NCBI RefSeq assembly: GCF_003334335.1
Contig: NZ_QOWQ01000003.1
From: Escherichia coli
Lineage (GTDB): Bacteria > Pseudomonadota > Gammaproteobacteria > Enterobacterales > Enterobacteriaceae
Direction: 5' to 3' (one strand)
DNA length: 64,000 bases
Positions 38,943 through 39,078 of this stretch are shown here, one piece after another (the first letter of the stretch is position 1; each line of letters starts with the position of its first letter). Made by a program: the position numbers and the translations under genes. The notes under the pieces are model-generated. The model saw only the letters and a list, made by a program, of their open reading frames with translations, did no database searches and was not told the DNA's origin.

Positions 38943-39078
38943 GATTACACCCCTGTATCTTTTTACATCACATTAGCGCGATTATCGCATAACCGATGTT
39001 TACTTTCAAAATAACCTGTTTGAATCACAGATTTTCATCACAGTTTTCACAGAAACAGAGGTGAATCGTGTTGAGTAT

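Follow-up and report, generated by a model that had tools for sequence, protein, structure and literature searches.

The window examined here is a 64,000-nucleotide stretch of Escherichia coli DNA (assembly GCF_003334335.1, contig NZ_QOWQ01000003.1) that is K-12-like and carries the ydj genes on its minus strand. The open reading frame of ydjL (44344..45420) is followed on the same strand by ydjK, ydjJ, ydjI, ydjH, and ydjG (39079..40059, with the stop codon at 39079-39081), then, after a spacer of 136 base pairs (38943-39078), by ydjF (38184..38942, minus strand), which begins with a GTG codon at 38942 and precedes ydjE. YdjF is a regulator of the DeoR/GlpR family. The precomputed Pfam annotation of a 100%-identical protein lists the domains HTH_DeoR (PF08220) and DeoRC (PF00455), the RefSeq annotation agrees, and both domains are also found in the YdjF proteins of orthologous loci. 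The ydj cluster constitutes an orphan sugar-acid pathway whose promoter turns on in the mouse gut. Papers on the operon call its regulation uncharacterised, and the searchable literature, including papers that mention ydjF, yielded no operator, inducer, binding data, or regulon for YdjF. Here we describe a predicted DeoR-family operator in the ydjG-ydjF spacer that would confer autoregulation on ydjF, together with a moderately interesting layer of potential RNA structure.

A preliminary description of this spacer reported three direct TCACAG repeats, which are present on the plus strand exactly where it had placed them: at 39025-39030 (copy 1), 39038-39043 (copy 2), and 39047-39052 (copy 3). 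They lie 83-110 base pairs upstream of the ydjF GTG, in agreement with the approximate range of 80-110 given earlier, and occupy positions of about -51 to -78 relative to the predicted transcription start. TCACAG is rare: the two strands of the window together contain 17 copies. However, when the 64 kb were shuffled with dinucleotide composition preserved, 37% of the shuffled windows contained at least one hexamer that occurs three times without overlap within 28 base pairs (mean, 0.415 loci), and thus the triplet exceeds chance only weakly. Because the triplet by itself proves little, conservation must decide its meaning. One other hexamer triplet exists in the window, and no further one: ATATCA occurs three times in 21 base pairs at 34928-34948 (ATATCATTCATATCAATATCA), ending at the ansA ATG.

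The ydj region is present in 4330 of 5426 complete E. coli genomes, and about 20% are without it. In the E. coli sequences NZ_CP103745.1 and NZ_CP058571.1, ydjG is interrupted by an IS903B or IS30 insertion. Among the matches listed, YdjF orthologues from Enterobacterales share 76-97% identity with the E. coli protein, and those from many Firmicutes and Actinobacteria share 42-62%. The complete ydjLKJIHGF order is kept across these phyla, and is common to Enterobacterales, many Lachnospiraceae and Oscillospiraceae, Veillonella, Atopobiaceae, and Necropsobacter (loci L012-L081 of our collection, for example L017, L023, L035, and L036). Since gene order is shared and YdjL is 75-86% identical across such distant taxa, the data suggest that the cluster spread horizontally together with its predicted operator. 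Gamma-proteobacterial spacers were aligned from 11 and then from 14 taxa (Escherichia to Agarivorans), and 19 taxa were scored for site geometry and for the RNA helix discussed below. On the transcribed strand, the conserved blocks in both alignments are CCTCTGTTTCTGTG, AAATCTGTGATTCAnACA, the -35 and extended -10 elements, and the Shine-Dalgarno region.

To avoid circularity, an operator motif was learned without enterobacterial sequences, by de novo expectation maximization on 26 non-enterobacterial ydjL upstream regions alone. The resulting motif, AAATCTTTGAAACAcAGAA (19.8 bits), has the core palindrome TCTKTG-AAA-CAMAGA, which is of the form 6-N3-6 and which, to our knowledge, cannot be matched to any published DeoR-family operator. 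Its copies in these ydjL promoters are arranged in tandem, in the same orientation, and 20-22 base pairs apart. In Firmicutes, the main copy is centered 14-17 base pairs upstream of the -35 element, and a weaker copy lies over the -35 element and the promoter spacer.

When the window was scanned with the position weight matrix of this motif, the top match (45494-45512, 26.7 bits; runner-up, 13.2 bits) was located in the palindrome upstream of ydjL, which contains CACAGAT/ATCTGTG and so does share the core sequence that had been pointed out previously. The predicted operator at this location, designated O2 (45497..45511, plus strand, TCTGTAAAACACAGA), is centered on 45504 at about -50, which is 15 base pairs upstream of the -35 element TTGACC (45489..45484). 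A companion, O1 (45518..45532, minus strand, GTTGTAAAACGCAGA), is centered on 45525 at about -71, 21 base pairs from O2. The runner-up in the same scan is at 45095-45113, inside the ydjL coding sequence (codons FLCCTEK). It scores 11-16 bits in all gamma-proteobacterial ydjL genes, synonymous positions included, is absent in Firmicutes, and has variants (TCTTTG, CAAAGA) that track the degeneracy of the motif itself. This element may be an internal auxiliary operator.

The motif also finds a match in the ydjG-ydjF spacer. Site B, the main predicted YdjF operator (39017..39031), reads TGTTTG-AAT-CACAGA on the plus strand and TCTGTG-ATT-CAAACA on the minus strand, and is centered on 39024 at about -50. 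In E. coli its scores (39014-39034, 8.1/7.6 bits) rank 13 and 17 among approximately 128,000 positions, and orthologous sites reach 10-20 bits in Citrobacter, Budvicia, Phytobacter, and Brenneria. The block that contains it, CTGTGATTCA, is nearly invariant in the 14 taxa from Escherichia to Agarivorans. The distance from the center of site B to the first base of the -35 element is 15 base pairs in 18 of the 19 taxa and 14 base pairs in the remaining one (P0057, L089). A matrix built in the reciprocal direction, from the site B sequences of genera other than Escherichia, places O2 of ydjL at ranks 7 and 12.

Two weaker sites flank site B at a similar phase. Site A (39039..39053, minus strand, TCTGTG-AAA-ACTGTG) is distal, with its center on 39046 at about -72, 22 base pairs from site B. 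Site C (38997..39011, minus strand, TTTTGAAAGTAAACA) is proximal and overlaps the -35 element, with its center on 39004 at about -30, 20 base pairs from site B. The positions at ydjF (about -72 and -50) match those of O1 and O2 at ydjL (about -71 and -50). When arrays of two/three phased sites were scored across the 64 kb, the ydjL upstream region ranked first (27.3/23.2), the ydjG-ydjF spacer second (11.1/7.6), and the third-ranking location was far below (0.1/-2.9). The combined score of sites B and A is reached by only five positions in the window. Sites A and C are themselves only weakly conserved. Site C scores 2.7-2.9 bits in E. coli and in Enterobacillus outscores all other sites (13.6 bits). 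The highest-scoring ydjF-upstream site of S. fonticola (14.7 bits) is likewise over the -35 element, shifted by one base relative to site C. The counterpart of site C at Firmicutes ydjL promoters is the motif copy that lies over their -35 element. Site A scores -3.5 bits in E. coli and falls in the top 0.06-0.6% of positions of its own locus in 15 of 19 taxa, percentiles that reflect the choice of the best of three positions. Considered as a full palindrome, site A gave poor scores in either orientation and was rejected, as only its TCTGTG arm matches.

This locus has a regulator gene of the appropriate family, a motif present at the promoter of that gene and at that of the adjacent operon, and a site B that is conserved in orthologues. 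Site B is most likely an operator for YdjF that provides negative autoregulation. We infer from this arrangement both that YdjF is the binding protein and what the sign of regulation would be. The earlier proposal that the spacer holds an operator shared with the ydjL promoter, through which YdjF may regulate its own gene, is thus supported in its general form, in that a motif derived from Firmicutes links the two regions that rank first and second in the window; the operator, however, is not the triplet. A separate observation concerns more distant regulators. The 300 base pairs upstream of 31 YdjF homologues (42-50% identity, mostly from Paenibacillus, without ydjG, ydjH, or ydjK) contain the motif at 1.08 matches per kb versus 0.125 per kb elsewhere in ydj loci. 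Given this difference in density, regulators related to YdjF may read a similar operator.

The comparison of orthologous ydj loci, which had been proposed as a check on the repeats, gives a different outcome for each TCACAG copy. Copy 1 (T-CACAG-A) is the promoter-distal arm of site B and lies in the block that is nearly invariant in both alignments. Copy 2 is specific to E. coli and is located in a variable linker, where E. whittamii reads CTATGA and all other genera lack it; it lies in the non-palindromic arm of site A. Copy 3 corresponds to the TCTGTG arm of site A, and in every Enterobacteriaceae examined other than E. coli it reads CTGTGT rather than CTGTGA. What is conserved is therefore not a set of three direct repeats but a palindrome of 15-19 base pairs (39014-39034) that holds copy 1 alone.

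These facts bear on the hypothesis that the three TCACAG/CTGTGA hexamers are direct-repeat recognition units, each bound by one YdjF subunit. The rarity of the hexamer and the presence of three exact copies in 28 base pairs are in its favor, and the sequence around and including copy 2 is similar to the left half of site B (rank 5 with the site B matrix). All three copies are also unchanged in six divergent E. coli genomes, where the sampled single-nucleotide polymorphisms all fall outside the repeats, but within-species diversity is too low for this to discriminate. A regular array of equivalent units was rejected because the spacings of 13 and 9 base pairs are irregular and not helically phased, the middle unit is confined to E. 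coli, and the third varies in its last base elsewhere. Furthermore, the cross-phylum motif is a 6-N3-6 palindrome rather than a direct repeat, and some hexamer forms a triplet in more than a third of shuffled windows. We therefore regard this hypothesis as very unlikely. Two other candidates in the spacer were dropped. By eye, the repeats do not contain a LexA box of the form CTGT-N8-ACAG; CTGTGATTCAAACAG has N7 spacing and is not conserved. The direct pair TTTACATCACA/TTTTCATCACA, which includes a fourth TGTGATG (38965-38971) near the start site, is not conserved in other genera.

The promoter that site B would control, a predicted sigma-70 promoter for ydjF (38981..39009, minus strand), consists of TTGAAA (39009..39004), a 17-base-pair spacer, and GATAAT (38986..38981), with an extended -10 TG (38989..38988) that is separated from GATAAT by a single c. 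It is the best promoter-like match in 8 kb (10 of 12 positions plus TG), and its elements are invariant across the aligned taxa. From the position of the -10 element, transcription is predicted to start at A 38974. The same hexamers were given for ydjF by genomic SELEX (systematic evolution of ligands by exponential enrichment) with RpoD holoenzyme, and the promoter was classed there as 'constitutive' (Shimada et al. 2014; PMC3946193).

A question raised by this architecture is whether YdjF would repress or activate. A site at -50 by itself does not occlude RNA polymerase, and so activation is possible. In one such scenario, YdjF bound at site B would activate ydjF and ydjL by contacting the alpha subunit of RNA polymerase. 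FucR, a member of the same family, acts as an activator. The main site is centered at -50 and adjoins the -35 element rather than covering it, at both promoters and in all taxa, and the -10 element of gamma-proteobacterial ydjL promoters (AAnTAT) is poor. On the other hand, the core promoters of Firmicutes ydjL genes are near consensus (TTGACT-17-TAGAAT/TAAAAT) and carry the second motif copy over the -35 element and spacer, Enterobacillus and S. fonticola have their strongest ydjF-upstream sites over the -35 element, and the ydjF promoter is strong. These characteristics favor repression. In addition, most characterized members of the DeoR/GlpR family are repressors, which bind cooperatively to several operators. 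Activation from site B is consequently an improbable alternative to repression.

The preliminary description also noted that the minus-strand CTGTGA sequences overlap half-sites resembling those of CRP. These do coincide with a published CRP box (39027..39042, plus strand, ACAGATTTTCATCACA), which was proposed when ydjF was identified as a target of CRP by genomic SELEX-chip (Shimada 2011, supplementary table; PMC3105977). The box joins a portion of copy 1 to the TCACA of copy 2, and its center at 39034.5 is about 60.5 nucleotides upstream of the predicted start. As a sequence, however, it is at chance level. It has three mismatches to TGTGA-N6-TCACA (7 of 10 core positions) and only one good half-site. 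Matches with three mismatches number 214 in the window versus 226 expected from shuffled sequences, or about one per 300 base pairs, and a core scan found no candidate with two or fewer mismatches within 250 base pairs. Since only three-mismatch matches at chance density are present, sequence alone lends CRP no support, and other species do not keep the TCACA half of the box. Binding of CRP to this spacer has thus been published as an in vitro observation, for which the sequence offers weak support.

One could nevertheless propose that the TGTGA cluster is primarily a class I cyclic AMP-CRP site that activates ydjF in E. coli, with YdjF not involved. The SELEX-chip peak and the predicted location of the box near -60.5 are consistent with this proposal, as is the evidence from the other end of the operon. 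A transcriptome study lists ydjLKJIHG as Crp-activated, and upstream of ydjL a CRP-like site, the right half of which is overlapped by O1, includes a TGTGA (45542..45538) that is invariant in gamma-proteobacteria. What argues against it, in addition to the mismatches and lack of conservation described above, is that the ydjF promoter is near consensus and is bound by RNA polymerase alone in vitro, and therefore no activator should be needed. We consider a primary role for CRP to be unlikely, and binding of CRP at the box is also compatible with site B being an operator for YdjF. With regard to the ydjL region itself, the half-site TTTGTGATC (45538-45542) is unchanged in each of 14 gamma-proteobacteria, and O1 overlaps its right half, which is of the CRP type. 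In Necropsobacter (L036), a perfect TGTGATCAAAATCACA occurs at the equivalent place upstream of ydjL.

One conserved block of the spacer, immediately 5' of copy 3, is not accounted for by the operator motif. When the spacer is folded as sense RNA, the predicted free energy is -36.8 kcal/mol (z = -3.9), and the fold is driven by a 19-base-pair helix that joins 39070..39051 with 38960..38940. The 5' arm (39051..39070, minus strand, CACGAUUCACCUCUGU-U-UCU) lies just after the ydjG stop codon and directly 5' of copy 3, and includes 39051-39052 of that copy. The 3' arm (38940..38960, minus strand, AGA-U-ACAGGGGUG-U-AAUCGUG) holds the Shine-Dalgarno GGGG (38953..38950) and the GTG start codon (38942..38940), such that the 5' arm could be considered an anti-Shine-Dalgarno and anti-start element.

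Of 19 gamma-proteobacterial taxa, 18 are predicted to form the arm duplex, at -17 to -29 kcal/mol with z-scores of -2.5 to -6.8. The arms differ between taxa in a complementary manner: Salmonella has ATTACACCTCT/AGAGGTGTAAT, S. fonticola has GTTTACCTCTG/CAGGGGTAAAC, and L089 has AAACCTCC/GGAGGTTT. Paired cells make up 73.5-75.6% of the aligned arms, compared with 43-52% when the partner is slid, and ten pairs have changed on both sides, a count that 1 of 500 shuffles attained. In 16 of 19 taxa the RNA folds more stably in the sense than in the antisense orientation (mean difference, -4.3 kcal/mol). This asymmetry implicates G-U pairs, and hence an RNA structure rather than an inverted repeat in DNA. 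A repeat search revealed no inverted repeat in the spacer, which is not surprising since the arms contain a bulge and G-U pairs. No terminator-like site was found between 38943 and 39078, and no Rfam match was found in 38600-39400 at E-values up to 1.

The ydjF promoter (39009..38981) is located between the two arms of this helix, and therefore only transcripts that read through from ydjG can form the stem. This layout suggests a conserved fold-back switch, in which the upstream arm would mask ydjF translation, or trigger cleavage, only on messenger RNA produced by read-through of the induced ydjLKJIHG operon, leaving the level of the repressor to be set by the autoregulated promoter of ydjF and insulated from operon induction. 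We put this forward as a tentative proposal that is somewhat less likely than not. If the stem is present, it would explain at least part of the conservation of copy 3, and in Citrobacter and Klebsiella RNA may contribute more than protein binding to the conservation of both copy 3 and site A.

Two further observations involve the region near the ydjF start codon. In eight Lachnospiraceae (L017, L019, L022, L024, L026, L027, L030, and L032), CATGCTTTC is located upstream of the ydjF -35 element (TTGCAA), at about -100, and is complementary to GAAAGCATG at the start codon (-9..+3). This pairing of 9 base pairs has the same fold-back layout as that in E. coli, with unrelated sequence. In the window, positions 38951-38970 (CCCTGTATCTTTTTACATCA), which are in the predicted 5' untranslated region of ydjF and overlap the 3' RNA arm, are not conserved outside Escherichia. 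This sequence has been proposed as a 'degenerate LexA site' for 'ydjF,ydjK', an unconventional target of LexA in chromatin immunoprecipitation on microarrays (PMC3542263).

An operator array, a weak CRP box, and a read-through RNA stem could together account for the region, and we favor this combined explanation with moderate confidence. The array would comprise a strong site B at about -50 and, in phase at intervals of 20-22 base pairs, a weak site A (copies 3 and 2) at about -72 and a weak site C (over the -35 element) at about -30. In the absence of inducer, YdjF oligomers would occupy both promoters and repress ydjLKJIHG as well as the strong promoter of ydjF itself. The linker between sites A and B would have drifted to CTGTGA in E. 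coli, creating a weak CRP box with part of site B. Because the CRP box overlaps the YdjF sites, CRP and YdjF would be expected to compete. On operon messenger RNA, the stem would mask ydjF translation or make a double-strand cleavage site, such that induction of the operon would not raise repressor synthesis. What the comparisons show directly is that the elements exist, are conserved, share a motif, keep their geometry, and include complementary RNA arms; we infer both the read-through from ydjG and its effect on translation. On the combined explanation, the triplet reflects three distinct signals of the ydjF control region that overlap in what looks like a coincidence.

Several observations weigh against parts of this explanation. 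The E. coli site B reaches no more than about 8 bits, and its neighbors A and C are weak, the score of A in this species being below zero. The RNA stem could also fully account for why site A is conserved in Citrobacter and Klebsiella. The ydjG-ydjF spacers of Firmicutes are mostly without the motif (two matches of at least 10 bits in 5.6 kb), and therefore autoregulation is not universal to the cluster and the autoregulatory site would be specific to gamma-proteobacteria. With regard to the helix, the outer stem shifts register between taxa, most core pairs are conserved rather than covarying, Enterobacillus is without the duplex, and the shuffle counts overstate significance since the sequences are related. 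A rival interpretation is that nothing in the spacer is functional and that the triplet and the motif matches are chance occurrences in AT-rich DNA. The weak triplet statistic and the low score of site B, at or above which 0.024 matches are expected in such a spacer, can be cited for it. However, the site B block is nearly invariant across genera between variable flanks, its distance to the -35 element is identical in nearly all taxa and at ydjL, and the array score is second in the window with a large gap to the third. We find this interpretation extremely difficult to credit.

Overall, the sequence comparisons point to a predicted DeoR-family operator with autoregulation, plus a possible RNA layer of moderate interest. 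The repeat that catches the eye was correctly seen, yet it resolves into three unrelated overlapping signals. The motif TCTKTG-AAA-CAMAGA and the sites at about -50 and -71 at both promoters make the YdjF regulon and its inducer directly testable, and the predicted operator has been kept together with the entire cluster, from Enterobacterales through to Lachnospiraceae. If the RNA stem is real, it would exemplify how a repressor gene located right behind its target operon can escape co-induction.

Control through multiple operators is well established for DeoR/GlpR regulators, as with GlpR at glpD and glpT-glpA, DeoR at the deo operators O1, O2, and OE, and AgaR at the aga promoters, including its own. 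The ydj locus is similar in several respects. YdjF, with its HTH_DeoR and DeoRC domains, is encoded beside a sugar-catabolic operon, several predicted operators, one strong and the rest weak, recur at intervals of roughly two helical turns, and a predicted site is present in the promoter of ydjF itself. The ydjL-internal motif at 45095-45113 also recalls the internal operators of glpD. Unlike in those systems, the predicted main site for YdjF is at -50 and not over the core promoter. A second comparison is with class I CRP promoters, in which the CRP site is centered near -61.5. The spacer resembles these in having a published in vitro CRP peak and a box with its center at about -60.5 from the predicted start, but differs in that the box has a 7 of 10 core with one good half-site and is not conserved beyond E. 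coli, and in that the core promoter is already strong.

The predicted RNA stem is reminiscent of fold-back inhibition of the IS10 transposase gene, in which RNA entering from outside brings along a sequence that pairs with the ribosome-binding site, whereas RNA initiated at the promoter of the element begins within the stem. A literature search found no citable source for the IS10 mechanism. A related case is the sequestration of the Shine-Dalgarno sequence in IS200 tnpA (PMC4513863). As with IS10, the arm complementary to the Shine-Dalgarno region of ydjF is upstream of the gene's own promoter and the arm with the Shine-Dalgarno sequence and start codon is downstream, so that the stem would form only in read-through RNA. 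In contrast to IS10, ydjF is a predicted repressor gene behind its target operon rather than a transposase gene, and its predicted loop of about 90 nucleotides would hold the whole promoter.

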